Source: Deltaproteobacteria bacterium (GTDB lineage: Bacteria; Desulfobacterota; GWC2-55-46). From it: a stretch of 53,510 nt of DNA. The DNA lies in contig JACRCE010000013.1 in NCBI GenBank assembly GCA_016213015.1, forward strand, positions 1 to 53,510. Direction: 5' to 3'. A program made the position numbers and the translations under genes. The notes below the pieces were generated by a model. It was not told where the DNA came from. It searched no databases and was given only the letters and a program-made list of their open reading frames with translations. Shown here in pieces: positions 1,892 to 51,296 of this stretch (positions are counted from its first letter, which is position 1; every line of letters begins with the position of its first letter).

Positions 1892-1939
1892 TGTCCGTCC
1901 TCTTTGTCCGCGATAAAACCGTTTGGCGCCGATGCGAAG

Positions 1940-5605: not shown

Positions 5606-5674
5606 AGGCTCAAACCTTTTACATGTCTTTCCGTCCCGCCGCTTTGACGCAAAATCAAGCCGTCCGTCCGGTTC

Positions 5675-6874: not shown

Positions 6875-6886
6875 GGCCAGTCGCCT

Positions 6887-8254: not shown

Positions 8255-8271
8255 GGTGTAACCTTTAAGCC

Positions 8272-10534: not shown

Positions 10535-10633
10535 CCGCACGCTGCGGCTAAAAACATCCGGCTATAGCAGCCGATGCGAGGTAATGACGCCTCTGTCCCT
10601 TGCAGACAATGGCTTGGAAGCGTTTTTTATTTT
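10535..10633 (+). promoter_or_regulatory. Structured 5' leader ending in a terminator-like hairpin
   Basis: Hairpins CCGCA/TGCGG and CATC(C)GGCT-ATAGC-AGCCGATG, then GACGC...TGTC/GACA...GCGTT followed by TTTTTTATTTT. Confidence 0.5.
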
Positions 10634-10657
10634 CTGGGCGATGGCGAGCGCTTTATT

Positions 10658-15955: not shown

Positions 15956-17239
15956 ATGAAAACGAATAAAACCATGGTGAAAAAGATCACGCTCGCGGGT
16001 TTCCTGTCCCTGTGCCTCAACGTATTTCTTTATATCACCTTGTCGGACGCCGCTTCAGCCCCTCAAGCAACGTATCTTAACGGCATCACGGACGGGATGC
16101 ACTCGCCGGCGAGGATAGCGGTCGGCCCAAACGGCGATATATACGTTACCGACCCAAGGAAGGCGAAGATACACGTCTACCGGCCGACAGGGGAGTTGAT
16201 GCGCTCACAGGCCGTTGGGGGCGCGCCATTGAGCGTCGCCGTTGACAACGCCGGCAATGTCTACGTCGGCGACGCAACGGCAAAAACCATAAAGGTTTAC
16301 GACACGAACTGGCTGTATCTGCGCGTTATAGGGGCGGGTAACGGCGAGTCGGACGACATTTCCATAAGTTCTTCCACGGGCAAACTATTCGCTACGGACG
16401 GCAAAAACAACGTTATCAGGATATACAACTCCGACGGAACCCTTTACAAGACGGTCGGGGGCATGGGCAGCGCAACGGGCAAGTTCAATTTTCCCACAGG
16501 GGTAACGGTCAACGACGCGGCAGGGGATGTCATTGTCGTCGACCAGATGAACAACAGAATACAGATATTCGACCTCGATGGAAATTACAAGTCCGCCATA
16601 ACCCCTCCGGCCTCCACGAGGAGCGGCTCTTACAGCAATGGCGCCCTTGCGAGCGGACAGGGCCTGGCGGTTGACGGCCAGAGGAGGATATACGCGGTAG
16701 ACGCCTTCCTTGGCACGGTGCACGTATATGACGGCAACGGCGCGTGGCTCAAGTCGATAGGCTCATTCGGAACTGGCCCAGGGCGACTTAACGTCCCTCT
16801 CGACGTTGTCATAGACGGCTACAACAGATTGCTTATCACGTCATCCAATACCAGCGCGGTCGAGATATACGGGATAGACGCCTACACCGTGCCCACGACG
16901 GACCCTTCGGCGCAAAACCAAACGCCGTCTTCATACGCCCTTTCCGGCGTCCAATGGGAGTCGGGTACCATAGACCTCGCGAGCGCCGACCTTTTTGTAG
17001 GCGTCATTATAACCGACACTGAGATACTCGACATTGACGTTGCCAGCGTCAGGCTCAACGCCGCTGTGCCGGTAGAGGCTTTCACCATAAAGGGAGACCT
17101 GTTGACCTTGAGGTTCAACAAGGACAAGGTGCGGGCAACGCTGACGGTATCGGCTGACGGGGACGCGACCGTGGCCATTACAGGGAACATGCGCGCGGGC
17201 GGCTTCTCTTACGCGGGAACGGTTAAGGTAATACGATAA
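15956..17239 (+). CDS. Secreted NHL-repeat beta-propeller protein with C-terminal Ig-like domain
   Basis: Signal/TM N-terminus, NHL repeats (GKFNFPTGVTVN, NNRIQIFDLDG, GRLNVPLDVVID), and C-terminal DIDVASVRLN...LTLRF...ITG domain. Confidence 0.9.
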   Translation: MKTNKTMVKKITLAGFLSLCLNVFLYITLSDAASAPQATYLNGITDGMHSPARIAVGPNGDIYVTDPRKAKIHVYRPTGELMRSQAVGGAPLSVAVDNAGNVYVGDATAKTIKVYDTNWLYLRVIGAGNGESDDISISSSTGKLFATDGKNNVIRIYNSDGTLYKTVGGMGSATGKFNFPTGVTVNDAAGDVIVVDQMNNRIQIFDLDGNYKSAITPPASTRSGSYSNGALASGQGLAVDGQRRIYAVDAFLGTVHVYDGNGAWLKSIGSFGTGPGRLNVPLDVVIDGYNRLLITSSNTSAVEIYGIDAYTVPTTDPSAQNQTPSSYALSGVQWESGTIDLASADLFVGVIITDTEILDIDVASVRLNAAVPVEAFTIKGDLLTLRFNKDKVRATLTVSADGDATVAITGNMRAGGFSYAGTVKVIR

Positions 17240-17264: not shown

Positions 17265-18731
17265 ATGAAAAACGATATAAATATTGCGGGAAAGGCGGCC
17301 ATGTTTATCGCCTTGTTGTGCGTTGCGGTTTATCTCGCCGCTCCTCCGGCGGTCCATGCCTCGGACCCTCCGCACAGGTCGGATTCGGACCCGAACTGGT
17401 GCGCCAACTGCCACAAGCAGCATAACGCCCCTGGAGGGGACGTAACCGCGGCCGAAGGCAACCCGAACCTCTGCATGAGTTGCCATAACGTCGCGGGCAT
17501 TGCCAAGAACAAGCCCTTTGCCTCGGCTGATCTGGCGGTGCCGGGGACATCAGGCATATCCCACAGGTGGGATTCCGGGCCGGCAGGGTATGTAACATCA
17601 GGAGGAACAAACACGTCCACCGGCAAGGTCATATCCGGTCTGGTCGTATCAGGAGGACAGCCCGCTTACTTTACCGGACAGTCGGTCAGACTCTATGAGA
17701 TAAAAATAACATCACAGGGCGACGTCTCCTCGGCCGCGTTCGACTGGAAATACTCCGACGACGACGGCTCCGCATGGACGGTCGGGGGGTCCGGCGTTTT
17801 AACCGGCCAGGGCATAGTCTTGAACGACAACCTCAAGATGCTTTTCGTCAACGGCTGCACGTCTATCCCGTGCAGCCCGGCGTCATTTATTTTGAACGAC
17901 ACGTGGACGATAAAGGTGAGGCCCGGCATTACGTTCCCTGCTACGTTGGATCTGAGCAAGAGGATGTTCAAGGACCCGAACGCCCCCTATGACATACCGG
18001 ACATGGACACCGGCATAGGGGTGGTGCAGGGATCCACTTACGGGAAGGTGGTATGCTCTACCTGCCACAACCAACACCTCCAGACCAACGCGCCGCTTGA
18101 TCCGCTTGCGCCTTCGACATACGCGGGGGCGGGCACGAGCGCGGGGCGGCACTTCCAGAGGATCACCAACAGTTCCAACCAGATGTGCCTTGACTGTCAT
18201 TCGCCGAGGAGGATAAACAGCGTCAGGACGTGGACAGGCTCCAGATTGAGCCATCCGGTGGAGGTTGCCTTCCCAAGCTCCAATACCCCGACCCATTCCG
18301 TTCCAAAGGAGCCGGGCGGGGCCGCTGCACAAAGCTCCAAGACCGTATCGGGAAGCGCCACGTCCGCAGGCTCCACGACAACGCTTGCGGATACAAGCAA
18401 AAGCTGGGCCGATAATGAATTAGTCGGCATGACCGTAACCTTTACCTGTTGGTGCGCGAACGCCTCGTGCGCCAATACATCCTGCGTCAACAAGGGAGAG
18501 CAGAGGCAAATCACCACCAATACGGCCAATCAGATTACGTGGGCGAGCGCGCTTCCGAACGCGGTATCGCAAAACGACCGTTACACGATAGACGCTGACG
18601 GGAACCCGACCAACAACTTTCGCTACGACGACAACGGAACACCGAGTTTCACTCAAGGCAAGGTGCTCTGCATGAGTTGCCACAGTCCTCACTGGGCGGA
18701 CTCGAACCAAAACACCTATGACGGCTTATAG
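17265..18731 (+). CDS. Pentaheme c-type cytochrome with inserted non-heme domains
   Basis: Signal peptide ending AVHA; CANCH, CMSCH, CSTCH, CLDCH and CMSCH, with the paired CxxCHxxH...(L/M)CxxCH pattern. Confidence 0.93.
   Translation: MKNDINIAGKAAMFIALLCVAVYLAAPPAVHASDPPHRSDSDPNWCANCHKQHNAPGGDVTAAEGNPNLCMSCHNVAGIAKNKPFASADLAVPGTSGISHRWDSGPAGYVTSGGTNTSTGKVISGLVVSGGQPAYFTGQSVRLYEIKITSQGDVSSAAFDWKYSDDDGSAWTVGGSGVLTGQGIVLNDNLKMLFVNGCTSIPCSPASFILNDTWTIKVRPGITFPATLDLSKRMFKDPNAPYDIPDMDTGIGVVQGSTYGKVVCSTCHNQHLQTNAPLDPLAPSTYAGAGTSAGRHFQRITNSSNQMCLDCHSPRRINSVRTWTGSRLSHPVEVAFPSSNTPTHSVPKEPGGAAAQSSKTVSGSATSAGSTTTLADTSKSWADNELVGMTVTFTCWCANASCANTSCVNKGEQRQITTNTANQITWASALPNAVSQNDRYTIDADGNPTNNFRYDDNGTPSFTQGKVLCMSCHSPHWADSNQNTYDGL
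18683..18723 (+). repeat. 41-bp direct repeat, copy 1
   Basis: cagtcctcactgggcggactcgaaccaaaacacctatgacg, identical to 19598-19638. Confidence 0.97.
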
Positions 18732-19597: not shown

Positions 19598-19638
19598 CAG
19601 TCCTCACTGGGCGGACTCGAACCAAAACACCTATGACG
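19598..19638 (+). repeat. 41-bp direct repeat, copy 2 (contains the ATG of the giant gene)
   Basis: Identical to 18683-18723. Confidence 0.97.
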
Positions 19639-22600
19639 ACGTGTAATACCCACATAAAAGGATACCTTCTCCTTTCGATTATCTTGGCCGTCTGCCTCAT
19701 GGGGCTTTACCATGCCTACGCTGACGACGGTAATATCTTAAGGAGGACCAACAAGGGGGATGACACCTGCGGCGGCGCGGCCAACGCCTGCCACAACGTA
19801 AAGGTGCACAACAGCGTAAATACCGGCTCCCTCAAATGGAGCGGGTCGGGCGGTTGGGGCATCGAGGGAGGCAGGTACGGCAAGTTCGTGTGCCAGACCT
19901 GTCATACGCCTCATAACACCAATAACATCTACCTGATAAGGGAGAAGATAAAATTTCCCGACGCCAGCGTCATGCCGTCGGGCCAGGTGGAAACCCCGGT
20001 TGATTATAGATATAAGAGCGCCACGGTAGGCACGCCTGAGGCCGACTATGCCAAAGGCAACGACGATGTCTCCGCATCGGGCCGCACGGCGGGCAACGGA
20101 CAGCCCGCCACATCATCCAGACCCTGCGAGGTCTGCCACAGCCAGACCAAGTACCACAGGTATAATACCGAGAGTCAGACCGGCGGATACAACCACAACA
20201 ACGCAAAAGACTGCGTAAAATGTCACAGCCACCAAAAGGGATTTGCCCATGCTTATGGCGCGGGCGGCGGCAAACTTGACGTCTGCATCCAGTGCCACGG
20301 CCATGACCCGGGGTATACATTTTCATACACGAGCATGGACGGCACGACGACGTCCACCATAACGAGCGAGGGCAGAGGAAACTATAGAGTCCACTCCACG
20401 CATACGGAAAACGACGCGGACGACAAGAGAGGCCCTAACGTCTTCTGCACCACCTGCCACGACCCGAACAACATGCCGACCTTCAAATCAGGCACGGATA
20501 TGGACGGCAACGGTTTATTCACCCTTAACGAGACCGATGTATGCGCCCAGTGCCACAGCGAGGGGGGGTTCTATAACGGCGTGAACTCCGACGCCGCCAC
20601 CGGCTCTGTCGGCGTTAAGGAGAACTTCAAGGCAACGAACGGGGACTATGCAAGGGGCGGGGTATACGACACGCTCTCCACCTATACTACCTACACGGGA
20701 AGCGCTGGCCTGCCGCCGGTTATTGTTTACGACTCGGACGGCACGCTCAAGACCGGCAAGGAGAAGTGGTGCGCCGGATGCCACGACGACGCGCCGCCGA
20801 CCATCAACGGCAAGACCGCGCCGATCATAGCCGGCGACAGTTCAACCTACGGCTTCTTTGTCAACGGCCACGGCAAGGAGAGCGGCAACTACAACAAGCT
20901 TTCATGGCAGGATTCAGCGGCAACCGGCAACCCGGCGGCGCAGAGGAAGTGCTACCAGTGCCACGATACGACCTTCACGCATATAGGCAACTCCGACTCC
21001 GGCACGCCTCGGAACAAACGCCTCAAGTGGTGGGATACGACTGAGTACAACAACAAGACCTGCAAGCAGTGCCATGACGACGAAAACGCCGGCGCCGTGG
21101 CAACGGCTGAACCAAAATGGTATACAACGTATGCCGGGTGGCAAAGTTCCGCGCATGGGTCAACGGCCAAGGGGAACCTTGAATGTACCAAATGCCATGA
21201 GCCCCACGGCATGGGCGGGACTAATAAGCCAGCCATGACCAGGGAGCTGCGCGAGAACCTGTGCTACAACTGCCACACCGGCGACACAGGATCATGGATG
21301 AACGTCGTGAACAACGCGATATCAGGGCCCACGACCGCCACGAGCATCGAGCAGGCCTTCGGTCTCGCGGGCACCAAGCACCCTGTGGCCGAATACAAGG
21401 CTTTCCAAAAGGACGGCCTGACCTACAACCTCACCTGCATCTCCTGCCATAACGTGCATCTTGTTACAGGCAGGTACTGGGAGGCTGACCAAGGAAAAAG
21501 CCCTCTTACGAGGTTTTCCAATAAGACGGCCGTATGGGGCGACAAGGCCGGGGAAAAGATGTCCGATTTTGCCGGAAGCGGGACCTACGAAACGCCGCTC
21601 TATGACGTTGAGTTAGGCTCAAACTTCAGGGCAAACGTCATGCCGGACTATCCGTCCTTCTGCCTGGACTGCCACTCAAGCTTCGGCGGGTCGGGGTACG
21701 AGACCAGCGGCATAGAGTGGAACAACAACCCCCACGGCAAGGGACAGGCCGGCGTCCCCAACCAATACGGCGGCCACAACTACTGGACGGTCGGGATGCA
21801 GGGGTTTGACGCCATAACGCCGGGTTTCAAGGCCAAGAGAGGCAGAGGCGGCAGGGACTTTAACTATGCCCCGTGGGATCCGGAGAGGCGCTACGCCGGT
21901 GCCAACTTCACACTGGCCTGCGTCAACTGCCACGAGGTTCACGGCAGCAATCAAAACAGGATGCTGAGACCGGAGATCGGCTCCGGCAACCCCTGTATAG
22001 AATGTCATTTTGATAAGAGCGAAAACATGGGCGGCGGCCTGTTCGGGTGCGGCTCCGCCTCATGCCATCAGACCACGGACATCCACCGGCTCGCCGTGGG
22101 GCAGAACACATCAGGCGTAACCGCGATCTTCGACCGGGAACATACGGTGGACATCAGATTCGAGTCGGTCCGCGGCGGCTCCGACGGGGCAAACGGCTTT
22201 GCCGATGCCACCACCTCGTTCTCCCACGCCAGGTTATTAGACATGGGGAACAAGTCGCCCCTCATCATGGTGAGCGCCACGGGGTCCATAGGAAGCGACC
22301 AGGTTACCGTGATATTCTCGAAAGGGGTATACACGGACATGGGCTCAACCGGGGCCTTGGTGGCTTCGGACTTTACCCTCACCGATACCGATAATTCAAG
22401 GACAATAACGGGCGTGTCCCATACGGCAGGGGGAACAACGGCCGTATTGACATTGAGCGCGCCCCTCGACGACGTGAGCGACATAGGTGTGGATACAATA
22501 GCCGCCGCAACCGGAACCTCGATTTACGATGAATTGGATATCCCCATGTCCGCCACAGGTGTCATAATAACCGCTACATCTCTTGCCATAAAAAGCATCG

Positions 22601-25600
22601 TTGCAAGCGACTCCGCCGGGGCCGACGGCATCCAGGCCGGGGATAAGGTGGTCTTAACGTTCTACCAGCCCACCCAGGGGAACGCCATTAACGCGTCGAA
22701 CATAGACACCGCCCTTGCCCTTTGGCCATTCCATACGTGGAAAGACGGGAGCGGCAATATCGGCAGCGCCGCATGGAACAACCCCACCAACGACACCCTG
22801 ACCATAACCCTCAGCGCCGCCGGCGGGGTCCCGACGGTAGCCTCCGCCGACGCGGTCACCATCGACGGAACCATCAAGACTTTGGCGGGCGCGGGTATAA
22901 CAGAATCCGCCCTCATATCCGGGACGTTTGACGTAGCAGGGAGCTTCGGCGGGTTGCTGGCCGGCGGCAGTGCGTGCTATGCCGGCGGCTGGTCCTGCGA
23001 GACATGCGACTGGCTGTCAACGGTCGCGTCGGTGCAGGCCAGGGTTGTCCCCGGCAAGGTCGGCAACGCGGTGCAGTTGGACGGGAACCAGTGCGTGGAA
23101 GTAGGCACGGATTCGTGCTACTCATCCACCGGCACCGCGCGCGCGACCGCCTCGGCTTACGAGTGGAAGAAGACCGGCACGGTAGAGGCATGGATATACC
23201 CGACGGAACTGACGGCAACGAGGTACGTCATTGCCTCCAACGAGCTGGATAACTACTATAACTACAGCCTTGAGATCACCAACGACTCAACCGACACAGA
23301 AAACGGACAACCGGCCGTATTTACGGACTACAGGCTGGTTTTCCGGTTCCACACGCCCACTGCGAGGGCGGTGTACAGCAGCCTGACCGTGCCGGTGAAC
23401 CAGTGGACCCACGTGGCTGCGGTCTATGACGCGGACGCCTATGACGGCAAGGTGGTAAAGATATACATGAACGGCAAGGACGTGACCGGGGTAACGACAT
23501 ACAGTTACGGCAGATTATTCTCCCAGCCTCCCAGTGGGACACTGCTGTATCCATCGTCGGGCGCCAACTCGTCCAACACGCAGGAGTTAATGATAGGCTG
23601 CGACCCCGGCATCATTGACTATAGACCCGGCTATAGCTACGGTTTGAGGCCCTTTGCCGGGTTCAAGGGCAAGATAGACGAGTTCAACCTGTGGAACATC
23701 GCCAGGACGCCGGACCAAATCGCCCAGGACTGCGGCGCGCCGAGGATAGTCAGCGCAACCGGCGCCATAGGGAGCGCCCAGGTCACGGTGACCTTCTCGG
23801 AAGGGGTATACACGTCCACGGGCGCAACCGGGGCCTTGCTCCCTTCGGACTTTGCCCTCACCGATACCGATAATTCAAGGACAATAACCGGCGTGTCCCA
23901 TACGGCGGGGGGAACAACGGCCGTATTGACATTAAGCGCGCCCCTCGACGCCGTGAGCGACATAGACGTGGACACCCTCGCCGCCGCAACCGGAAGCTCG
24001 ATTTACGATGCCGGGGATATCCCCATGGACACCAGGGCCACGGTAATAACCGGCGTTTCTCCTTCCATAAGGAGCGTCATTGCAAGCGACGCGGGCGGGG
24101 CCAACGGCATACAGGCCGGGGACAAGGTGGTCATAAAGTTCTACCAGGCCACCCAGGGCAACACCATTGACAATGGGAACATAAACACCGCCCTTGCCCT
24201 TCCGAACGGCCATACATGGAACGACTGGAGCGGCAATATCGGTAGCGCCTCATGGAACAGCCCAACCAACGACACCCTTACCATAACCCTCAGCGCAACC
24301 TCCGGCGTCCCGACCGTGGCCCCCGGCGACATGGTCACCCTCGGCGGGACCATAAAGAGTTCGGGGGGCGCGGACATGATAGACGCCCACGTCATATCCG
24401 GGACCTTTGACGCTGGGAACTTCGGCGGGCTGCCGTCCGGCGCGGTCGCGTATTACAACATGGTCGAAGGCGCCGGGCTTACTGCCCACGACACCAGCGG
24501 AAACGGCAACGATGCAACCCTGAAAAACGGGGTCGCCTGGACGGGGGGCCGCGCGGGCACGGTCCCCAACAACGCTGTCTCCCTTAACGGCGGCAACAAT
24601 TTCCTGGAGGCTCCCGACTCCAATTCCCTCGACCTGACCGACCAGGGGACCATAGAGGTCTGGGCAAAGAAGAACTCCAACAGGACATACCAGGCATATG
24701 TCGGCAAATACGCCTTCTCCGGGAGTCCCCTGGACTATTACGGCTACATGCTCGGTGACGCCAACGGCCAGATATCGCTGCGATGGGGCAGGCCACAAAT
24801 AAGCGAGAGGGACCCCTGGGTTTCCGGGACTGACTATTACGAGCCGGAGGTAAAGGGCGCGGACTACAGGTATTATAAAGCCGGCCCCGAAGACTCGCTT
24901 ATAAGCGATTGCGAAACCGCACCCGTGGGGCAATGGAACCATATCCTCGCCACCTACGACGGGGCAACGATGAAGATATTCCTGAACGGCCGCCTGATAA
25001 AGACCGGCAGCTACGTTAAAGCGGCCGTCGCCAACCCCTATCCCTTGAGGATCGGCGCCAGCGGCAGCGGAGGCGATTCATCCTATGAAAACGCCCTTGA
25101 CGGTGCGGTGGACGAGGCCGTTGTCTACAACCGCGCGCTTACCAACGACGAGGCCAGGGAGAGGTTCGGCGCGGCCGTACAGCCGAGCGGCGCCATTGCC
25201 TCCGACGTCGGCGGGGCTGACGGCATCCAGACCGGGGACAAGGTGGTGGTCAAGTTCGACGGCCCGACCAACGGGGCGGTTACAACGGCGAACATCGGCA
25301 CGGTCTTGTCGTTGAACAACGGCCATTCATGGGGCGCGGTACAAAGCGCTGTATGGTCAACCAAGGTATTCAGCAACGACACGCTTACGGTTACCCTCTC
25401 GTCGGGCGCCACGATCGACAAGGGAGACGTCATCACCACGGACGGCACGGTCATCAAAGACCGCAAGGGGAACGCCATAAGCGCCACGGTAAGCGTGAGC
25501 GGCAGGTTCAGCCCGTTGTCGAGCGGAGTGGTTGCCTACTATGACTTCAACGAGGGCACGGGCAACGTTGTCCATGACCTGACACCGAACGGGCTCGACG

Positions 25601-28600
25601 GCATCGCAATCGGCGGGGCTTCATGGATACCGGGCAGGAACGGCCAAGGCTATGCCCTTGATCTGGACGGCTCCAGCGGCTACGTGAGCGTGTCCGAGTG
25701 CGGCGACACCCCTCTTGACCTGATCAACAAAGGCACCTTCGAGTTCTGGCTGAAGAAAGACAGCCAGCCATGGAGTACCACGCGCATTGTCAGCAAGGGG
25801 GATGGGACTGTAACACCCGACTATCCGCGCGGCACATTAGGCTACGATTTCTATACGTACAGCAGCAGTGGCGTGGGGCTGAGTCTGACATGGGGCGGCG
25901 AGGGCGGCTCCAGCTCTACCTACAGCGATCCCTATCTGGACATTAACGGCGAGTGGAGGCACGTCGTTGCAACTTATGACGGAGGAAACGCCAGGTTCTA
26001 CGTGGACGGCCAACCGGTCGGCGCCGGCGGCATGTCAGCAGGCGGAGTGAAAAGCAATGCCCCGGTCCTGTTCGGCGTTGACAGCGGCCTGACCAGCTAT
26101 CTGGACGGCGCGATAGACGAGGCCATCATTTACAACAGGGCGCTTACCGGCGACGAGGTGAGGGAGAGCTCCGGAATCCCCTGGAAGATGAAGACAGCGG
26201 TTGCCTACGACATGGGCGGCGCAAGCGGCATACAGACAACGGACAAGGTCGTCATAACCTTTGACGGCCCGACCCAGGCAAACAGCATAAACGCGGGCAA
26301 CATAGACGCCGTATTGAGCCTGTCAAACGGCCATACGTGGAAGAGCGGCAACGGCGGCCTGGGAAACGCGGCATGGAGCACAAAGACGTTCACAAACGAC
26401 ACATTGACGATTATTTTCAGCGATGCTGGCGGCGCGCCGAATGCAGCGGTCGGCGACACCATCACCCTTGACGGCGTTACCATAACCGACCACAAGGCCC
26501 GTCCGGTCCCGGTCGGTTCGGTCGTCGTTTCAGGCACATTCGGCCCGCTCTCCGCTGATATTGTCGGTTACTGGAACTTTACCGAGGGGAGCGGCACAGC
26601 CGCCAACGACTCTTCCGTCTACGGCAACCACGGCGCTCTCAGGGGTGACGCAGGCTGGACAACGGGCCAGGCCGACGGCGCCATATCGCTTGACGGCAGC
26701 GGCGCTTACGTCAACGTCAATGACTCCAATTCATTAGATCTCTCGACACGCGAGTACTACGCCATAAAGGCGCTTTCATCCACAAAGGCCTGGGCCGTGG
26801 GCCAGAGCGGCGCCATTGCGGAAGGCACGCGCACGGGCACGGACTTTAACCTGAACTGGACGGCTTCTTCCTCCAGCCCGACTACGAACCATCTCTATTC
26901 AATAGACTCGGCCTCGGCCACGGAGATGTGCGCGGTCGGCATGAACGGCACGATACTCTGGTACAACGGCTCGTCGTGGGGGGCTTCGTCTTGGACGAGC
27001 CCGGTCACGACAGACCTCTATTCAGTAGATATGCTCTCGGCTACGAGCGGCTGGGCCGTGGGCAAGAACAACGTCATCATCCGGTTCAACGGCTCAACAT
27101 GGTCGCAGGTATCCATAAGCTCGCCCACCGCTACGTGGTCGCTCAAGTCCGTGAAGATGCTGTCCGCCTCCGAAGGCTGGGCGGTCGGCGGCGACAACAT
27201 CGCCACGGCAGTAATCCTCAAGTGGAATGGAACCAACTGGACGGAGTTCTATACGACCACGGCCATCAACATGCTCAATTCCATTGACATGCTCTCATCC
27301 ACCGAGGGCTGGGCAGTGGGGATCAGCGGCAAGATATTGAAGTTTGACGGGACAAGCTGGACGGAATTCACAAGCCCGACGCCTTATGACCTCTATTCAG
27401 TGAAGGCAATCTCAACCACGGAGGCGCTGGCCGTGGGGGCGAACAGGACCATCCTGAAGTTCAAGGACACGGCATGGACAATCAACTCCAATATCGCCGA
27501 GGTTACAGGCTATCCTATTCTCAGGTCGGTGGAATCGTATATCCTGAACCCCACAGAGATATACTACTCTGGAGGCATCCCATACATTGAAGAAAAGAGA
27601 TGGGAGTACGCGGCCGGAGACGCCAGCACGATAATAGAGCACAGCGCAGGGACATTCCTGTCCGGCTCCCAGGCGGGGCAGGATACAGATTATTCATGGC
27701 ATGGCCGCGACGCAGGCGGCTACGGCGGCGCGACCTTTGAGGTATGGGCGTGGAAGAACTCCAACAAGTACGACCAGACCTATCTGGCCAAGCAGTACCC
27801 TGACTCCACCGCCGCCGCCCCGATAAACTACAGGGTCAAGGACGAAGGCAGCACGGGCAAGCCCGCCTTTACAGTGGGCAGGGATTCGAACCAGGCAAAC
27901 CCGGTTGTCTGCTCCGACGTTGCTCCGGTGGGTCAGTGGAACCATATCGTCGCTACAGGCACATCCACCCTGAAGATATACCTGAACGGCCAGCTCTGCG
28001 GCACGGGTACAGCCGGTCCGAGAGGCACGAGTTCTACATACCCGCTGGTGATAGGCACGGGGTATTACGGAGGCGCTGATTTCGACGGCAAGATAGACCA
28101 TGTAACCATCTATAACCGGACGCTCTCCGGGGACGAGGTGTGGGCCAAATACGGCTCCAACTCCGTAAGCTTCAAGAGCGCCGTGGCGGACGACAACAGC
28201 AGCGGCGGCTCCGGCATACAGGCCGGAGACAAGGTAATCATAACCTTTAACGGGCCCACACAAGGTACAGCCGTCTCCTCCGCCAATATCAACACAGTCC
28301 TGAACGCGGCTGGCAAGACATGGCTTGACGGGAACGGCGGCGTTTCAGCCGTGTGGAGCACAACCGCCTTCACCAACGATACCCTGACCATAACGCTAAG
28401 CGCCACAGGCGGGGCGCCAACCGTAGCCGTGGGCGATACCATAACCTTGAGCGGCCTATATGACTCCCTCGGCAGGGCCATGACCGGCACGATTGCCGTA
28501 GCCGGAAGTTTCGGGACCGACACCTACGGCTGGACACTCGACACCTACTCGGAATGGACGGCAGGGTCCCTCATATCCGCAAAGCCCGCCAAAGACAACT

Positions 28601-31600
28601 GCGTGGAGCTTCAGAACTGGGACGTCCACACCCGTGAGATCAGGGGCGTTGACATGCTTTCGCCGACCGAGGGGTGGGCAGTGGGCGCAAATGGCGCTAT
28701 CCGCAGGTGGGACGGCACGAAGTGGAAGGTATTCCCAAGTCCCATAGACTCCTCCGTCGGTTCCACGACGTGGCCCGCCGGTCTCTACGGCATAGACATG
28801 CTCTCATCCACGCTCGGCTGGGCGGTCTACGCCAACACGTCGTCCGGCTTGGGTAAGATGATCAGGTTCGACGGGACCAGGTGGTCCGAGGAGACAATCC
28901 CCTCTGGCACACCATCCCTCTATGTGGTGAAGATGTTATCGTCTACCGACGGCTGGGCCGCTGGAGCCAGCGGCACGATGCTCAGATATGACGGCGCGAG
29001 CTGGACCGCAGCCACCAGCCCGACGACCAGCGCCATTTATGCCATAGACGGCGTCTCTTCAAACGAAATATGGGCGGCAGGCTCAACCGGGACATCGATC
29101 TTCAAGTGGAACGGTTCAAGCTGGACGACCTACACGCTCCCCGCCTCGGCGAGCATCCGCTCCATCCACATGCTCTCTGCCTCCGACGGCTGGGCAGTGG
29201 GGAGCGGCGGCAAGATATTCAGATACAACGGCTCAAGCTGGTCTTCCGTAACCAGCCCGACGACGACCGCCCTCTACTCTGTGCGGATGGTCTCGTCCAC
29301 GGATGGATGGGCAGTGGGCGGCGTAGCAGGCAGCGGCAGCGTCATCCTGCGCTGGAACGGCTCTACATGGAGTACTTACAACACGTACGCGTCGGTGAGC
29401 TATCTCTATGCGGTCAACATGCTCTCCACAACCGAGGGCTGGGCCTTGGGCTATGATGGGGCAATATTCAGATGGAACGGAAGCGCGTGGTCGGAATACG
29501 CCGGGGTCTACAGCGATTACATCTGGGATATGGTGTTTGCCTCAGACACCGATGGATGGGCAATCAGTCAGAGCGGAAAGATGCTCAGGTACAACGGCGC
29601 GGAATGGACCACTTACGCCAGCCCGACAACCAATTTGCTTTTTGCCATAGACACGGTCTCGGCCAACGAGGCCTGGTTCGCTGGGCCGAACGATTACTTC
29701 TGGAAATACCTCAACGGCTCATGGACGTCCGTTGCCAACGGGAGCGGCAAGTGGATGTTCGGCATTGACATGCTCTCCTCCTCCGCGGGATGGGCAGTCG
29801 GCTACGGGATAGCCAGGTGGGACGGCGCGAGTTGGTCGGGCGTCGCAAGCCCTACGGCCAACGTCCTGAATTCCGTCAAGATGTTGTCTTCCACCGAGGG
29901 GTGGGCGGTCGGCAACAGCGGCACTATCATCAAGTGGGACGGCGCGAGCTGGACAACGGTTGCAAGCCCCACAACACAGACTCTCACGGCCATTGATATG
30001 GTTTCTTCAACAAAGGGCTGGGCGGTTGGATACGACAATGCTACCAATAACGGGATCATGCTTGAATATAACGGCGTATCGTGGTCAATGCTTACTCTCC
30101 CAACTCCGACGACAACGACGATCGGCGCGCTGAGAGACATCAGGATGAGGTCGTCCACAGAGGGCATCGCGGTCGCAGGCAGCACAATGCTGGCCTATGA
30201 CGGGACGTCATGGAAATATAGCCAAACTCCGACGGACGCCTCATACGCTGTTGCCTATACGCCTTCGGGCACGCCGTGGACCGCTGGATACGCTACCTTC
30301 ATGGAAAGGGTCGATTACTTCCCAACAGGCACGGTTACCAACAGCCTTGACGCGGGGTCAGCGGTCTACTGGACAAACAGCAGCTTCTCAGCGACCCAGC
30401 CCGCCGGGACATCGGTCGCCTTCAGATGGGCCACGTCCGACGATAATGTCAACTGGTCGGCATGGACAACCAATTTCGCTTCACTTGCAAGTAGCAGGTA
30501 CATAAGGCAGGAGGCGACCCTCTCCACAGCCAATGCAACTGTCACCCCGTCGTTGTGCAGTACAACGGTAGGATATAACACAACACTGTCCCCACCCAAT
30601 CCGCCGACCATCGGGGCGGCGACAGGGTTGTCGGCCACATCCATCCGGTGGAACTTCACGGACACCGCCAACAATGAAACCGGGTTCAAGCTCCATGACG
30701 CAGACCATGCGGTCAAGGCAAGCTCCGCAACGCCGAACCTGACATACCTCGACGAGACGGGGCTTACGGCCAATACCCAGTATACGCGGCACGTGCATGC
30801 GTACAATGCTGTAGGCGATTCAGCGGGAAGCGGCGATGCGACAGGATATACCCTCGCGGCGTCACCGGATGTGACGCCGAGCAGGGCTGCTTCCTCATGG
30901 TCGAACAACGCGAACCTGACCTTTATGAACGCAGCCGGGTTCGGCGCGGGGGGTGTTCAGTACTACCGTTACGCATGGGATCAGACGGCTGCCCATACCT
31001 TTACCGGCGCTGAGACCCAGTGGACGAGCGGGACACTCACGACCGCTGCAACCGTGTCAGGAGGCTGGTATCTCCACCTCAAGTCGTATAACGCCGCAGA
31101 CGCGGGGGGCAGCGCCCAGGATTACGGGCCGTTTAACTACGAGACAACCGCCCCTGGTCAGGTAACGGGGTTGTGGTCTTCCCCGGCCTCGCCAACCTCC
31201 GCCAACATGGGCTGGACCGCTACTTCCGACACGGGCGGCAGTGGATTGGCCGGGTATAAGGTGGAAAGGGCCATTGACATAAGCGGCAGCCCGGATACGT
31301 TTGCCCAGGCAGGGACAACAACCTCCAACACCTGGTCCGACACTGTGCTCCTTGCCAACGCCAGGTTCTGGCACAGGGTAAGGGCCTACGACAACGCCGG
31401 AAACAACGGGGCATATTCCACCGCCGTTTCCGTCATGACCCTCCCCGTGACTCCGAATGTGACATCCGACAAGACGGCTTCGACATGGTACAACACAACA
31501 GATGTGGTATTCACCAACGCCGCCGGGTTCGGCGCAGGCGGGGTGCAGTATTACAGGGCGGCATGGGACCAGAGCGCAACCTATACCTTTACCGGGACCG

Positions 31601-33930
31601 AGACCCAGTGGAGTTCCGGGACATTGACGGGAACAGCCACAGCGGACGGAAGTTGGTATCTGCACGTCAAGTCGTTCAACGGCGACAATATCGCAAATGG
31701 AACACAGACCTACGGGCCGTTCTATTACGACGGTACCGCTCCGACCGGGCATGGAAATTCATCCCCTGCCGACGGCGCCACGGGACAGGCAACCACAACT
31801 ACGCTAAGCTCCACCATTGCCGTTGACGGCGTCAGCGGCGGGGTGCAGTATTACTTCCAGTTGGCCGCAAACAGCGGCTTTACCACGGGCGTCCAGACAA
31901 GCGGATGGCAGGCGGGCACGAGTTTTACCCCGGTTCTCGCGGGCAGTACGACCTACTATTGGCGCGTAAAGGCAAGGGACGCGGCGCTCAACGAGACGGC
32001 CTACACGGCCACATGGTCGTTTACCAGCGTCATCTTTGTGATCCCCGCAACCCCGACAATAGGCGCGCCTGCGGCATTGTCCGCTACGTCAATCAGGTGG
32101 AACTTCATTGACAACGCCACTGACGAGGAAGGGTTCAGACTCCACGATTCGGGCCACGTAGTTAAGGCAAGCGCGGCAACGCCTAATCTTACTTACCTCG
32201 ACGAGACAGGGCTTACGGCCAACACCCAGTACACGCGGCACGTACATGCTTATAATGCCGCAATGGGGGATTCCATAGGGAGTCTCGACGCTTTGACGTA
32301 CACCTTGTCGGCGTCTCCGAATGTAACATCCGACAAGACGGCCTCGACATGGTACAACACAACGGACGTGGTATTCACGAACGCCGCCGGGTTCGGAGCG
32401 GGCGGTGCGCAATACTACCGTTACGCATGGGATCAGAGCGCGACATACGCCTTTACCGACGCGGAAACCCAGTGGACGACCGGGACATTGACAATGACCG
32501 CAACGGCCGAAGGCGGTTGGTATCTGCATGTCAAGTCGTTCAACGGCGACAATATCGCCAATGGGATCCAAACCTACGGGCCGTTCTATTACGATATAAC
32601 CGCTCCGACAGGGCTTGCCAATTCTTCCCCTGCCGACGGAGCGACCGGTCAGCCGACCGGCGCCGCCGTAACTTCCACCGTCGCGGCCGACAGCGGCAGC
32701 GGCGGGGTGCAGTATTACTTCCAGTTGGCCGCGGACAGCGGCTTTACCTCAGGCGTCCAGACAAGCGGATGGCAGGCGGGCACGAGCTTCGCCCCGGTCC
32801 TCGCGGCCACTACGACCTACTACTGGCATGTGAAGGCACGAGACGGCGTTCTCAATGAGACGCCCTATACCGCCGCGTGGTCGTTTACCACAGTAGCAGC
32901 AACAACGACACAGATGGGCGGGGCCATACAAGGCGTGTCCCTTAGCCTTACAACCGCTGTAACGACCCTTGCGGGATCGGCGGGACTCAATGGTTCAACG
33001 GACGGGACAGGTTCCGCCGCATTGTTTAATTACCCAGCCGGCATAACCACTGACGGGACAAACCTTTATGTGGCTGATTTCAGTAATCGCACAATCCGCA
33101 AGATAGTTATATCGTCCGGCGCTGTAACGACCCTTGCGGGCTTGGCCTTGACTTCCGGCTCAACGGACGGGACAGGTTCCGCCGCAAGGTTTAATTTCCC
33201 TTTCGGCATAACCACTGACGGGACAAACCTTTATGTGGCGGATAGATCTAATAGCACAATCCGCAAGATAGTCATATCCACGGGAGTTGTCACGACCCTT
33301 GCGGGCACAGCCGGGAGCACCGGTTCAGCGGACGGGACAGGTTCCGCCGCAAGGTTTAATAACCCTTACGGCATAACCACTGACGGGACAAACCTTTATG
33401 TGGCGGATACCCTTAATCGCACAATTCGCAAGATAGTCATATCTACGGGAGTTGTAACGACCCTTGCAGGCACAGCCGGGAGCACCGGTTCAGCGGACGG
33501 GACAGGTTCCGCCGCAAGGTTTAATCGCCCTTACGGCATAACCACTGACGGGACAAACCTTTATGTGGCCGATACCTATAATTACACAATCCGCAAGATA
33601 GTCATATCCACGGCCGTTGTAACGACCCTTGCAGGCACGGCCGGGAGTTCCGGTTCAACGGACGGGACAGGTTCTGTTGCTCGGTTTTATTACCCTCAAG
33701 GCATAACCACGGACGGGACAAACCTTTATGTGGCCGATACCTATAATATGACAATCCGCAAGATAGTCGCATCAACGGCCGTTGTCACGACCCTTGCGGG
33801 ATCGAGCCCCGGTTCAGCGGACGGGACAGGTTCCGCCGCAAGGTTTTATAACCCTACCGGCATAACCACGGACGGGGCAAGCCTTTATGTGGTTGATACC
33901 GATAATTTCACAATCCGCAAGATTCAGTAG
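19633..33930 (+). CDS. Giant (4765 aa) secreted multiheme cytochrome with LamG, beta-propeller, FN3-like and NHL modules
   Basis: Signal peptide ending AYA. The first ~815 aa carry 15 CxxCH plus CX6CH and CX4CH. Then 4 LamG domains (W(T/N/R)HxxAxYDG, DEx3YNRAL), 5 GIQAGDKVV repeats, MLSSTEGWAVG propeller repeats, FN3-like TYYWRVKARD modules and 6 terminal NHL repeats. Confidence 0.95.
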   Translation: MTTCNTHIKGYLLLSIILAVCLMGLYHAYADDGNILRRTNKGDDTCGGAANACHNVKVHNSVNTGSLKWSGSGGWGIEGGRYGKFVCQTCHTPHNTNNIYLIREKIKFPDASVMPSGQVETPVDYRYKSATVGTPEADYAKGNDDVSASGRTAGNGQPATSSRPCEVCHSQTKYHRYNTESQTGGYNHNNAKDCVKCHSHQKGFAHAYGAGGGKLDVCIQCHGHDPGYTFSYTSMDGTTTSTITSEGRGNYRVHSTHTENDADDKRGPNVFCTTCHDPNNMPTFKSGTDMDGNGLFTLNETDVCAQCHSEGGFYNGVNSDAATGSVGVKENFKATNGDYARGGVYDTLSTYTTYTGSAGLPPVIVYDSDGTLKTGKEKWCAGCHDDAPPTINGKTAPIIAGDSSTYGFFVNGHGKESGNYNKLSWQDSAATGNPAAQRKCYQCHDTTFTHIGNSDSGTPRNKRLKWWDTTEYNNKTCKQCHDDENAGAVATAEPKWYTTYAGWQSSAHGSTAKGNLECTKCHEPHGMGGTNKPAMTRELRENLCYNCHTGDTGSWMNVVNNAISGPTTATSIEQAFGLAGTKHPVAEYKAFQKDGLTYNLTCISCHNVHLVTGRYWEADQGKSPLTRFSNKTAVWGDKAGEKMSDFAGSGTYETPLYDVELGSNFRANVMPDYPSFCLDCHSSFGGSGYETSGIEWNNNPHGKGQAGVPNQYGGHNYWTVGMQGFDAITPGFKAKRGRGGRDFNYAPWDPERRYAGANFTLACVNCHEVHGSNQNRMLRPEIGSGNPCIECHFDKSENMGGGLFGCGSASCHQTTDIHRLAVGQNTSGVTAIFDREHTVDIRFESVRGGSDGANGFADATTSFSHARLLDMGNKSPLIMVSATGSIGSDQVTVIFSKGVYTDMGSTGALVASDFTLTDTDNSRTITGVSHTAGGTTAVLTLSAPLDDVSDIGVDTIAAATGTSIYDELDIPMSATGVIITATSLAIKSIVASDSAGADGIQAGDKVVLTFYQPTQGNAINASNIDTALALWPFHTWKDGSGNIGSAAWNNPTNDTLTITLSAAGGVPTVASADAVTIDGTIKTLAGAGITESALISGTFDVAGSFGGLLAGGSACYAGGWSCETCDWLSTVASVQARVVPGKVGNAVQLDGNQCVEVGTDSCYSSTGTARATASAYEWKKTGTVEAWIYPTELTATRYVIASNELDNYYNYSLEITNDSTDTENGQPAVFTDYRLVFRFHTPTARAVYSSLTVPVNQWTHVAAVYDADAYDGKVVKIYMNGKDVTGVTTYSYGRLFSQPPSGTLLYPSSGANSSNTQELMIGCDPGIIDYRPGYSYGLRPFAGFKGKIDEFNLWNIARTPDQIAQDCGAPRIVSATGAIGSAQVTVTFSEGVYTSTGATGALLPSDFALTDTDNSRTITGVSHTAGGTTAVLTLSAPLDAVSDIDVDTLAAATGSSIYDAGDIPMDTRATVITGVSPSIRSVIASDAGGANGIQAGDKVVIKFYQATQGNTIDNGNINTALALPNGHTWNDWSGNIGSASWNSPTNDTLTITLSATSGVPTVAPGDMVTLGGTIKSSGGADMIDAHVISGTFDAGNFGGLPSGAVAYYNMVEGAGLTAHDTSGNGNDATLKNGVAWTGGRAGTVPNNAVSLNGGNNFLEAPDSNSLDLTDQGTIEVWAKKNSNRTYQAYVGKYAFSGSPLDYYGYMLGDANGQISLRWGRPQISERDPWVSGTDYYEPEVKGADYRYYKAGPEDSLISDCETAPVGQWNHILATYDGATMKIFLNGRLIKTGSYVKAAVANPYPLRIGASGSGGDSSYENALDGAVDEAVVYNRALTNDEARERFGAAVQPSGAIASDVGGADGIQTGDKVVVKFDGPTNGAVTTANIGTVLSLNNGHSWGAVQSAVWSTKVFSNDTLTVTLSSGATIDKGDVITTDGTVIKDRKGNAISATVSVSGRFSPLSSGVVAYYDFNEGTGNVVHDLTPNGLDGIAIGGASWIPGRNGQGYALDLDGSSGYVSVSECGDTPLDLINKGTFEFWLKKDSQPWSTTRIVSKGDGTVTPDYPRGTLGYDFYTYSSSGVGLSLTWGGEGGSSSTYSDPYLDINGEWRHVVATYDGGNARFYVDGQPVGAGGMSAGGVKSNAPVLFGVDSGLTSYLDGAIDEAIIYNRALTGDEVRESSGIPWKMKTAVAYDMGGASGIQTTDKVVITFDGPTQANSINAGNIDAVLSLSNGHTWKSGNGGLGNAAWSTKTFTNDTLTIIFSDAGGAPNAAVGDTITLDGVTITDHKARPVPVGSVVVSGTFGPLSADIVGYWNFTEGSGTAANDSSVYGNHGALRGDAGWTTGQADGAISLDGSGAYVNVNDSNSLDLSTREYYAIKALSSTKAWAVGQSGAIAEGTRTGTDFNLNWTASSSSPTTNHLYSIDSASATEMCAVGMNGTILWYNGSSWGASSWTSPVTTDLYSVDMLSATSGWAVGKNNVIIRFNGSTWSQVSISSPTATWSLKSVKMLSASEGWAVGGDNIATAVILKWNGTNWTEFYTTTAINMLNSIDMLSSTEGWAVGISGKILKFDGTSWTEFTSPTPYDLYSVKAISTTEALAVGANRTILKFKDTAWTINSNIAEVTGYPILRSVESYILNPTEIYYSGGIPYIEEKRWEYAAGDASTIIEHSAGTFLSGSQAGQDTDYSWHGRDAGGYGGATFEVWAWKNSNKYDQTYLAKQYPDSTAAAPINYRVKDEGSTGKPAFTVGRDSNQANPVVCSDVAPVGQWNHIVATGTSTLKIYLNGQLCGTGTAGPRGTSSTYPLVIGTGYYGGADFDGKIDHVTIYNRTLSGDEVWAKYGSNSVSFKSAVADDNSSGGSGIQAGDKVIITFNGPTQGTAVSSANINTVLNAAGKTWLDGNGGVSAVWSTTAFTNDTLTITLSATGGAPTVAVGDTITLSGLYDSLGRAMTGTIAVAGSFGTDTYGWTLDTYSEWTAGSLISAKPAKDNCVELQNWDVHTREIRGVDMLSPTEGWAVGANGAIRRWDGTKWKVFPSPIDSSVGSTTWPAGLYGIDMLSSTLGWAVYANTSSGLGKMIRFDGTRWSEETIPSGTPSLYVVKMLSSTDGWAAGASGTMLRYDGASWTAATSPTTSAIYAIDGVSSNEIWAAGSTGTSIFKWNGSSWTTYTLPASASIRSIHMLSASDGWAVGSGGKIFRYNGSSWSSVTSPTTTALYSVRMVSSTDGWAVGGVAGSGSVILRWNGSTWSTYNTYASVSYLYAVNMLSTTEGWALGYDGAIFRWNGSAWSEYAGVYSDYIWDMVFASDTDGWAISQSGKMLRYNGAEWTTYASPTTNLLFAIDTVSANEAWFAGPNDYFWKYLNGSWTSVANGSGKWMFGIDMLSSSAGWAVGYGIARWDGASWSGVASPTANVLNSVKMLSSTEGWAVGNSGTIIKWDGASWTTVASPTTQTLTAIDMVSSTKGWAVGYDNATNNGIMLEYNGVSWSMLTLPTPTTTTIGALRDIRMRSSTEGIAVAGSTMLAYDGTSWKYSQTPTDASYAVAYTPSGTPWTAGYATFMERVDYFPTGTVTNSLDAGSAVYWTNSSFSATQPAGTSVAFRWATSDDNVNWSAWTTNFASLASSRYIRQEATLSTANATVTPSLCSTTVGYNTTLSPPNPPTIGAATGLSATSIRWNFTDTANNETGFKLHDADHAVKASSATPNLTYLDETGLTANTQYTRHVHAYNAVGDSAGSGDATGYTLAASPDVTPSRAASSWSNNANLTFMNAAGFGAGGVQYYRYAWDQTAAHTFTGAETQWTSGTLTTAATVSGGWYLHLKSYNAADAGGSAQDYGPFNYETTAPGQVTGLWSSPASPTSANMGWTATSDTGGSGLAGYKVERAIDISGSPDTFAQAGTTTSNTWSDTVLLANARFWHRVRAYDNAGNNGAYSTAVSVMTLPVTPNVTSDKTASTWYNTTDVVFTNAAGFGAGGVQYYRAAWDQSATYTFTGTETQWSSGTLTGTATADGSWYLHVKSFNGDNIANGTQTYGPFYYDGTAPTGHGNSSPADGATGQATTTTLSSTIAVDGVSGGVQYYFQLAANSGFTTGVQTSGWQAGTSFTPVLAGSTTYYWRVKARDAALNETAYTATWSFTSVIFVIPATPTIGAPAALSATSIRWNFIDNATDEEGFRLHDSGHVVKASAATPNLTYLDETGLTANTQYTRHVHAYNAAMGDSIGSLDALTYTLSASPNVTSDKTASTWYNTTDVVFTNAAGFGAGGAQYYRYAWDQSATYAFTDAETQWTTGTLTMTATAEGGWYLHVKSFNGDNIANGIQTYGPFYYDITAPTGLANSSPADGATGQPTGAAVTSTVAADSGSGGVQYYFQLAADSGFTSGVQTSGWQAGTSFAPVLAATTTYYWHVKARDGVLNETPYTAAWSFTTVAATTTQMGGAIQGVSLSLTTAVTTLAGSAGLNGSTDGTGSAALFNYPAGITTDGTNLYVADFSNRTIRKIVISSGAVTTLAGLALTSGSTDGTGSAARFNFPFGITTDGTNLYVADRSNSTIRKIVISTGVVTTLAGTAGSTGSADGTGSAARFNNPYGITTDGTNLYVADTLNRTIRKIVISTGVVTTLAGTAGSTGSADGTGSAARFNRPYGITTDGTNLYVADTYNYTIRKIVISTAVVTTLAGTAGSSGSTDGTGSVARFYYPQGITTDGTNLYVADTYNMTIRKIVASTAVVTTLAGSSPGSADGTGSAARFYNPTGITTDGASLYVVDTDNFTIRKIQ
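32959..33927 (+). repeat. Six 165-bp intragenic NHL tandem repeats
   Basis: gt(a/c)acgacccttgc recurs at 32959, 33124 and onward with a 165-bp period (55 aa). Confidence 0.95.
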
Positions 33931-50100: not shown

Positions 50101-50139
50101 ACCTAGTTAGGGTTGACTACGGTTCATGGTTAACGACGA

Positions 50140-51285: not shown

Positions 51286-51296
51286 ATAACTATCCC

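Follow-up and report, generated by a model that had tools for sequence, protein, structure and literature searches.

A giant deltaproteobacterial gene predicted to join a multiheme cytochrome head to a heme-free tail of binding modules

Why a cytochrome should carry nearly 4000 residues that hold no heme motif is the question raised by one gene of a deltaproteobacterium (GTDB lineage Bacteria; Desulfobacterota; GWC2-55-46), located on contig JACRCE010000013.1 of assembly GCA_016213015.1. The stretch analysed here, referred to as the window, comprises positions 1 to 53,510 of the forward strand of that contig. Two parts can be distinguished in its product, a head that bears all the heme motifs and a long tail made of Ig-like (immunoglobulin-like), LamG, propeller and FN3-like modules, which are listed below in the order of the chain. 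The answer favoured here, to which we give a probability of roughly 0.6, is that the gene encodes a modular, Sec-exported protein of a cytochrome/propeller gene cluster, in which a surface or extracellular electron-transfer head would be positioned by an adhesive tail.

19633..33930, plus strand: the whole gene, a single open frame with an ATG start, 4765 codons and a stop
19633..19722, plus strand: predicted signal peptide, about residues 1-30 (hydrophobic window and N-termini of relatives, judged by eye)
19723..22092, plus strand: multiheme head, residues ~31-820 (motif count, Paired_CXXCH_1 score and an alignment of 55 sequences)
22267..26478, plus strand: Ig-like/LamG array, residues 879-2282, arranged as IgA-IgB-LamG twice, IgB-LamG and IgB (internal repeats of 25-73% identity, Laminin_G_3); the closing IgB-LamG and IgB fall in residues 1840-2282 (internal repeats, Pfam)
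26476..28152, plus strand: fourth LamG, residues 2282-2840, apparently split by a Ycf48-like seven-blade propeller at ~2370-2700 (the halves align to the third LamG)
28150..30582, plus strand: IgB5 (residues 2840-2960), a 14-blade block (2960-3560; PSII_BNR, blade motifs) and a beta-rich segment of ~90 residues (~3560-3650) with no family
30580..32922, plus strand: FN3/Big_5-like repeat array, residues 3650-4430 (fn3 E 2.6e-6, Big_5 E 5.3e-4, repeats)
32926..33927, plus strand: six-blade NHL propeller tip, residues 4432-4765 (six repeats of 165 nt, 55 residues each; NHL match)

The heme head and the start of the chain

By a regular-expression count, the head contains 15 CxxCH motifs, with their first cysteines at residues 87..788, and two variants, a CX6CH (CGGAANACH) at residue 46 and a CX4CH (CGSASCH) at residue 806, giving 17 heme motifs in total, every one of them before residue 812. 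The distribution of cysteines follows the same division. There are 36 in the head, none beyond residue 811; 34 of them form the 17 motif pairs, and the other two (C4 and C21) lie inside the signal peptide, each cysteine of the mature head thus belonging to a heme motif. The first cysteine past the head is at residue 1115, and the remaining ~3950 residues, about 83% of the protein, hold 14 cysteines and no heme motif at all. Such a pattern of heme head and heme-free tail cannot be attributed to chance.

The scores of the corresponding protein models are well above their cut-offs (66.2 bits against 20.6 for Paired_CXXCH_1, PF09699; 49.4 against 25.2 for TIGR01905), and by these scores and its motifs the protein is predicted to be a c-type multiheme cytochrome of the paired-CXXCH class. 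In the alignment of 55 sequences most heme motifs vary little or not at all, C806, C811 and H812 of the CX4CH site among them, and the same is true of eleven histidines outside the motifs, which fit bis-histidine hemes. The CX6CH site reads as a conserved variant rather than as decay; its form, CGGxxNACH, is common to four relatives at the place where others have CHACH. Covalent heme attachment is predicted at all 17 sites, and the genome encodes three CcsA-type (PF01578) heme-attachment loci that score above the cut-off.

The public gene call begins at M23 and gives a protein of 4743 residues. The longer ATG start is preferred here because a start at M23 would delete the signal peptide that is present in the relatives, which open alike, with a hydrophobic N-terminus followed by a common 'DGN(I/L)LRR...C' motif. 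Residues 6-31 are the sole stretch of transmembrane strength in the whole chain (the sole window above 1.6 in the hydrophobicity scan), and cleavage of the signal peptide probably takes place after AYA (AYA/DD). The residues LAV, which precede C21, do not make up a canonical lipobox, and no C-terminal anchor was found by the hydrophobicity scan or at the C-terminus, where the chain ends within an NHL blade. Scans for promoters and terminators around the gene gave nothing better than shuffled sequence.

The tail and the family of heads

The map of the tail rests on searches of protein segments against the full chain and against Pfam. In a sequence-only reading of the same DNA, made before this analysis, all hemes had been placed in the N-terminal ~815 residues and tallied as 15 CxxCH, one CX6CH and one CX4CH; the following ~3950 residues had been described as a heme-free stalk of binding modules, with alternating Ig-like and LamG units, two propeller blocks, FN3-like repeats and a six-blade NHL tip, and with no C-terminal transmembrane helix, lipobox or anchor. 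All of this is borne out. The motif count is identical, with the last motif at residues 806-812 and none past 812; the only strongly hydrophobic stretch is that of the signal peptide; and Pfam and the repeat map together give the order of the modules, the folds recognised by Pfam being of binding type.

Laminin_G_3 is matched over four stretches (E 1.9e-67). In the two IgA-IgB-LamG copies (residues 879-1370 and 1372-1830) the IgA-IgB parts are about 70% identical to each other and the LamG parts about 25%. The name Ig-like is applied to the IgA and IgB units only in the sense of their size, their internal repeat pattern and a weak match to SWM_repeat (E 0.02), and no family is matched significantly. 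A propeller of about 300 residues has apparently been inserted inside the fourth LamG, the two halves of which flank it, each aligning to the third LamG and neither giving a confident fold. A single-sequence fold of residues 2282-2850 was confident at 2421-2616 only, so that the propeller part alone was modelled, and the best structural match of this part is Ycf48 (5oj5_A, E 2.1e-11 over 296 columns). Both propeller blocks match PSII_BNR/Ycf48 (E 6.6e-10 for block 1 and 1.6e-13 for block 2), and the number of 'GWAVG'-type blade motifs, 6 in block 1 and 14 in block 2, suggests one and two seven-blade propellers, respectively; the 14-blade block at residues 2960-3560 is therefore probably made of two Ycf48-like propellers. 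The repeats of the FN3/Big_5 array are 35-79% identical to one another, and the same module is found in three related loci (L012, L020 and L021, at 50-63% identity) and in the relative P0004. As for the tip, it is matched by Pfam NHL with an E value of 4.8e-24 and by the NHL domain of SOQ1 in the PDB with one of 3.4e-37. Sequence searches of the PDB with the 14-blade block, the IgA-IgB-LamG unit and the FN3 array returned nothing useful. The tail as a whole is acidic, carrying a net charge of about -122, and abounds in Thr, Ser, Ala and Gly, and Pfam detects no RTX or other calcium-binding repeat family in the giant protein.

The head has a large number of relatives. A search among 1.84 billion cluster representatives returned 799 clusters at E<=1e-3, 497 at E<=1e-10 and 164 at E<=1e-30. 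The longest of the 150 matches listed from this search has 3956 residues; besides the gene's own public call there are three relatives of similar length (3117, 3456 and 2734 residues) and 121 shorter ones, mostly of 1400-1550 residues with Laminin_G_3. In databases they are called 'LamG-like jellyroll fold domain-containing protein' or 'cytochrome c3 family protein', and the named relatives come from metagenome-assembled genomes (MAGs) labelled Nitrospirae/Nitrospirota, Nitrospinae, Thermodesulfobacteriota, Eisenbacteria, Chloroflexota and others; head relatives also occur in MAGs labelled Sideroxydans, Sedimenticola and Thiodiazotropha. In fact, MAGs are the source of every one of the 79 related loci. 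In a sample of 246 relatives, biased to the best matches, the heme-free tail after the last CxxCH has at least 500 residues in 155 proteins, at least 1000 in 52 and at least 2000 in 7, and the longest one reaches 3091 residues, against ~3950 in the giant protein. The same head is also found with other tails, for example Calx-beta with GLUG and CBM96, right-handed beta-helix, PKD, FN3, Big_5, GEVED or filamin. Among the 42 strong related loci, IgA homologues are present in 38 and LamG in 24; no Ycf48-like propeller turned up in any of the 79 related loci. When residues 2282-3650 of the tail were searched among giant proteins, 24 other proteins were recovered, in which only the propeller modules matched (15-40% coverage) and none of which has a cytochrome family; these carry surface-protein domains such as Big_2, dockerin and PF18962, the last of which we take to be the sorting domain of the type IX secretion system.

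The closest comparison is with the proteins that combine this head with a LamG/Ig tail (P0006, P0010, P0072 and P0088). The heads are homologous over 80-97% of their length at 32-51% identity, they share the same heme motifs, CX4CH included, IgA/LamG modules come after the head, and an NHL gene lies upstream. By this head homology, followed by IgA/LamG modules, the giant protein can be assigned to the same family. Its members are typically 1400-1550 residues long, whereas the giant protein has 4765 and adds Ycf48-like propellers and a C-terminal NHL domain. It is thus an extreme, lineage-specific variant of a widespread and unstudied kind of cytochrome with a binding tail, and no one-off chimera. 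In the part of PubMed Central (PMC) that was searched, multiheme cytochromes or CXXCH were not found together with LamG, broader literature searches gave nothing on a family of such heads and binding tails, and the names of the non-heme domains do not occur in the main texts of PMC11492766 and PMC12977616. Whether well-characterised proteins already share the architecture had been raised with the sequence-only reading as a point that could undo it. No well-characterised one was found, but the architecture class itself turns out to be common in metagenomes.

Neighbouring genes, export and lineage

The genes that precede the giant gene on the same strand are, in order, those for a DUF7948/SBBP propeller protein, a nine-CxxCH cytochrome, an NHL protein, a five-heme cytochrome and a nucleotidyltransferase. 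Together with the features at the left edge of the window, among which is a cluster resembling type IV filament (T4F) and type II secretion (T2SS) machines, they are as follows.

3..1214, minus strand: multiheme cytochrome, following the T4F cluster at the left edge of the window
1376..10161, minus strand: T4F/T2SS-like cluster (lipoprotein secretin with TPR, pilin-like, GspF-like, MshE-type ATPase and PilM/N/O-like proteins)
10574..15662, plus strand: DUF7948/SBBP propeller protein (988 residues) and nine-CxxCH cytochrome (711 residues), in open reading frames (ORFs) that overlap by 14 nt
15956..17239, plus strand: secreted NHL propeller protein, 427 residues (NHL E 4.2e-16)
17265..18731, plus strand: five-heme cytochrome, 488 residues, between the NHL gene and the giant gene

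Part of this string is conserved. In the related locus L006, a homologue of the five-heme cytochrome forms an in-frame N-terminal extension of the head, and the order NHL, five-heme cytochrome, head is kept. Since the two cytochromes form one frame there, the nucleotidyltransferase gene looks like an insertion into a conserved string; it is of the DUF6036/AbiEii-like type and lies at window positions 18996-19580, between the five-heme cytochrome and the giant gene. The fused relative itself (L006:5139-10088) has 1649 residues and 20 CxxCH motifs and comes from a groundwater deltaproteobacterial MAG. The presence of an NHL gene could be examined in 22 of the 42 loci with a strong head, those with 3 kb or more of DNA upstream, and a homologue was found within 6 kb upstream on the same strand in 10 of the 22, so it is frequent, not universal; in L028, L031, L040 and L041 it directly abuts the cytochrome gene.

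The T4F cluster is divergent from the string of the giant gene and lies upstream of it. All its proteins score below the NCBIfam cut-offs (GspD 168 against 351, GspE 524.5 against 630, PilB 549 against 676; likewise GspF, PilC and PilQ), and homologues of its ATPase and platform protein occur in one of the 79 related loci. A link between this cluster and the giant protein is suggested by adjacency only, and to regard the protein as a T2SS substrate is a guess prompted by the neighbouring cluster; T2SS substrates are not known to carry a sequence signal. The window also encodes a TolC-like OEP protein, which together with the lipoprotein secretin indicates that the cell has an outer membrane. 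The resistance-nodulation-division (RND) pump at 47044..52604 is of the AcrB type and does not belong to a type I secretion system (T1SS). As a separate observation, the cytochrome at 3..1214 has a 93% identical paralogue (354 aligned residues) on contig C86 of the same genome (G000) and a short 100% match on contig C21.

With regard to the origin of the gene, the head was not found in a genome of the same genus (G001; 96% complete, 240 contigs) or in 29 other genomes of the family and order, apart from partial matches to its last ~100-140 residues (E>=4.8e-14). The right flank of the gene (pheT, pheS, infC, thrS and the RND pump) is found in G001 at 85-89% DNA identity; from the left 20 kb, that genome retains no more than portions of one cytochrome and of the ATPase gene. 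Identities of 72-82% connect the NHL tip with the C-terminal ends of small NHL proteins, of about 370-440 residues (some of them cut by contig ends), that are encoded in the organism's own genome and in G001, and the region in common includes the junction 'QMGGAIQ' and the ending 'RKIQ'. These observations make the gene look as if it had been recently acquired or remodelled by recombination in this lineage, its NHL tip apparently derived from the resident family of small NHL proteins. The tip might also have been copied recently from the adjacent gene for the 427-residue NHL protein, a possibility that is ruled out by an identity of 25% (E 0.002-0.006). Copies of the small NHL family lie at G000:C49:14958-15668 and C71:8395-9330 and on contigs C41 and C33, and in the other genome at G001:C231:142-1455 and on contigs C88 and C103, with C-terminal domains 72-85% identical to the tip. 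The copy on C49 is located about 3 kb from one CcsA-type heme-attachment gene (C49:11264-11947), and a 437-residue member from G001 has a lipobox-like 'LFSC'.

Traces of mobile DNA are also present in the window. Directly 3' of the giant gene, beside a tRNA-Pro(GGG), a 112-residue fragment of a phage-type integrase is encoded at positions 34253-34684 (profile positions 86-169 of 172), possibly the eroded border of an integrated element with which the cytochrome cluster arrived. Short dispersed repeats at about 35450-35700 and 41135-41365 have dozens of copies, 85-98% identical, across the contigs of G001 and are probably families of miniature inverted-repeat transposable elements.

Possible functions and their meaning

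In the mechanism favoured here, the modular giant protein would be exported through Sec, and its N-terminal ~790 residues would arrange 17 covalently attached hemes in a chain. This head would act as the terminal, outermost electron-exchange module of an extracellular electron-transfer gene cluster, which would also supply the smaller multiheme cytochromes and the separate propeller proteins encoded just upstream. The tail would position the head, attaching it to a mineral surface, to a matrix polysaccharide or to another cell, or else securing it in the surface layer of the cell itself. A tethering of the redox head to a mineral, a matrix glycan or a partner cell had already been proposed in the sequence-only reading and is a reasonable hypothesis. 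Two orientations can be envisaged: the head might dock near an outer-membrane conduit while the tail extends towards the solid, glycan or partner that it binds, or the tail might be fastened in the cell's own surface or matrix and present the head. Since the tail lacks heme motifs, conduction through hemes is not possible along it; fully extended, it would measure on the order of 100 nm, as roughly estimated from typical domain sizes.

Several points weigh against this proposal. A heme-free tail of ~100 nm would keep the target away from the hemes, and the tail would therefore have to be flexible or lie flat. The location outside the outer membrane is suggested by the types of domain only, and family scans of the window ORFs, among which the unassigned ones were not folded, revealed no porin, lipobox, sorting tail or anchor. 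Of the 22 loci mentioned above, 12 lack the NHL neighbour. As regards structure, the AlphaFold2 model of the head, built on the 55-row alignment, has a mean pLDDT (predicted local distance difference test score) of only 53, and comparison of this poor model with the PDB by Foldseek gave nothing at E<=1e-3. A phmmer search of the PDB with the head gave 0 matches, and a 19-sequence profile gave only short, motif-level ones, such as a chain of MtrA (E 1.8e-7) and, as the best match, 9yuq_N (E 1.4e-7 over about 35 residues); a search of the ESM Atlas retrieved generic cytochrome clusters only. A wire-like chain of hemes is thus an assumption, because the head has neither a confident model nor a significant relative in the PDB. 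Finally, the metagenome run used to check the contig is probably its source, which makes that check a second assembly and not independent data, and the numbers of NHL blades and FN3 repeats rest on short-read assembly.

One alternative is that the long ORF is an artefact, joining a cytochrome-LamG gene of ~1500 residues to one or more unrelated surface-protein genes. Misassembly had been singled out beforehand as an outcome that would overturn the sequence-only reading, and there are reasons to suspect it: the gene is rich in repeats, its NHL tip has paralogues elsewhere in the genome, and in the Logan contig set of one groundwater metagenome run, which contains 99% of the sampled words, contigs break in the repeats, one NHL bin has a depth of 64 against about 12 elsewhere, and the interval 32726-33817 is bridged by none of the long contigs listed. 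However, the contigs, when aligned to the gene, cover every bin, at a depth of 10-20 in 27 of the 28 gene bins (the NHL bin being the exception; a last bin, at depth 7804, covers the tRNA, outside the gene). One contig (19609-22405) crosses the junction of head and tail with 0 mismatches, and another (33817-34634) runs from the last blade over the stop codon into the flank. The breaks, at 22380-22405, 23859-23884, 31862 and 32726, fall on 31-mers that are present twice in the gene, and with no more than two occurrences of a word, a linear path has a single possible order. Repeated 55-mers number only three, the longest exact words common to the gene and the NHL paralogues of its own genome have 24-41 nt and none of them lies at a domain junction, and the frame stays open for 14.3 kb. 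Depth and G+C content are even along the gene, the latter being slightly higher (0.59-0.61) than in the flanks (0.51-0.58). Furthermore, the junction of Ig-like domain, QMGGAIQ and NHL domain recurs in the 437-residue protein of G001. One contig joint, 31967->32813, would skip 845 nt; with only 20 letters to one of its sides and a position within the FN3 repeats, it is treated as an artefact of repetition. A misassembled fusion is unlikely, since the second assembly spans the head/tail junction and breaks only on repeated 31-mers, and an origin of the long frame in the joining of unrelated genes is, in our judgement, very improbable.

With the frame taken as genuine, two other functions have to be compared with a surface electron-transfer head. 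The protein might be a scaffold or capacitor that stays in the periplasm or cell envelope, with its tail bound to envelope polymers. This would agree with the lack of any recognised signal for outer-membrane export or anchoring, with an adjoining T4F machine that cannot be assigned to T2SS, and with the fact that Ycf48-type and NHL propellers are also found in non-secreted proteins; however, an array of 3950 residues of Ig, FN3, LamG and propeller modules is typical of surface proteins, surface-protein domains are carried by the 24 giants that share the propellers, and relatives of the head have beta-helix, PKD and CBM tails, all of which leaves a location in the envelope as an outside chance. 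A slim chance, too, is what we give to the head being a multiheme reductase or oxidase acting on a soluble or polymeric substrate, with the heme of CX4CH or CX6CH as its active site and with a tail that binds the substrate or its surface. Catalytic heme sites with non-standard motifs exist, such as the CXXCK of NrfA and the CX15CH of MccA, both non-standard motifs of the head are conserved, and the LamG/CBM-type tails of the relatives are typical of carbohydrate-active enzymes. Weak matches to NrfA-type nitrite reductases were also obtained (profile E 9e-4 to 0.02, Foldseek E 4-6), none of them significant, but Pfam, NCBIfam and the PDB yielded no significant match to any multiheme enzyme, the eleven conserved histidines outside the motifs fit bis-histidine electron-transfer hemes, and the genes around the giant gene encode further cytochromes and propellers instead of enzyme subunits. 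An electron-transfer head held in place by an adhesive tail thus remains the reading that we favour.

Parallels for such a protein exist in several known systems. Very large multiheme cytochromes fused to heme-free domains, MHC-A, MHC-B and MHC-C, have been reported in anaerobic methanotrophic archaea (ANME), and for the pectin-lyase-like domain of MHC-C a recognition of the partner cell wall has been suggested by the authors, so that the idea of a cytochrome combined with a binding module is already in print (Chadwick et al., 2022, PMC9012536). The ANME proteins are archaeal, have 20-86 hemes, and place their non-heme part at the N-terminus or in an S-layer domain, and MHC-A and MHC-B have C-terminal membrane helices (PMC9012536), of which the giant protein has none. 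The likeness noted here is one of architecture, and about 83% of the giant protein is heme-free. Another example is the linkage of NHL proteins to extracellular cytochrome clusters, for which two papers name Uet, Gmet_0556 and Desulfovibrio ferrophilus (10.1101/2022.05.06.490989; PMC10734462). The Uet clusters of Ca. Tenderia and Gallionella, the PCC3 cluster of Sideroxydans and the giant locus are alike in having secreted multiheme cytochromes beside NHL proteins and smaller cytochromes; in contrast, Uet and PCC3 include an outer-membrane porin of 26-28 strands and cytochromes with no long heme-free tail (10.1101/2022.05.06.490989; PMC10734462), and in the giant locus an NHL domain is additionally fused to the cytochrome. 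Pfam recognised no porin in the window, where the unassigned ORFs were not folded and might include a divergent barrel.

The better-known surface cytochromes differ more clearly. MtrC and OmcA of Shewanella are outer-membrane decaheme lipoproteins, exported by T2SS, that work as terminal reductases at the cell surface. Some relatives of the head match domains II/IV of MtrC/MtrF (PF22113; E 1e-12 to 9e-18); the giant protein, unlike MtrC and OmcA, has no PF22113 match at E<=0.01, no canonical lipobox and no significant PDB match, and Pfam and NCBIfam detected no porin, MtrA equivalog or mtrAB-like neighbours in the window. With respect to the filament subunits OmcS, OmcE and OmcZ, no phmmer match to the head was found in the PDB, profile matches remained at the level of motifs, and the model compared by Foldseek was poor. 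Finally, the giant repeat adhesins exported by T1SS (LapA, SiiE and the ice-binding type) differ from the giant protein, which has no RTX family and an NHL blade as its C-terminus; nor is the AcrB-type RND pump of the window a T1SS.

Most explanations of extracellular electron transfer invoke porin-cytochrome conduits and cytochrome filaments. Here, one conserved head is found in at least 799 clusters from uncultured bacteria of many phyla, including MAGs labelled as genera of iron or sulfur oxidisers, and it is almost always joined to tails of the lectin, Ig, propeller or beta-helix type. Tentatively, and at odds that we would place well below even, the family might be a general system for targeting electron transfer, in which a constant head is combined with tails swapped by recombination for solids, polymers or partner cells; the present protein, with its record tail and an NHL cap captured from small NHL lipoproteins of the same cell, would then be a tether or matrix fixer and not a wire. 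If this were true, the distance from head to tip would exceed any known heme path in a single protein, and the protein would serve to collect redox-active particles or partner cells on a tether, or would fix heme heads in a matrix and so give rise to a conductive layer. The giant protein is the extreme case of the family and appears to show a local recruitment of tail modules. More generally, the pattern of tails suggests that the placement of a cytochrome may matter as much as the distance over which it conducts, and the types of tail offer a route to reading target specificity from sequence.

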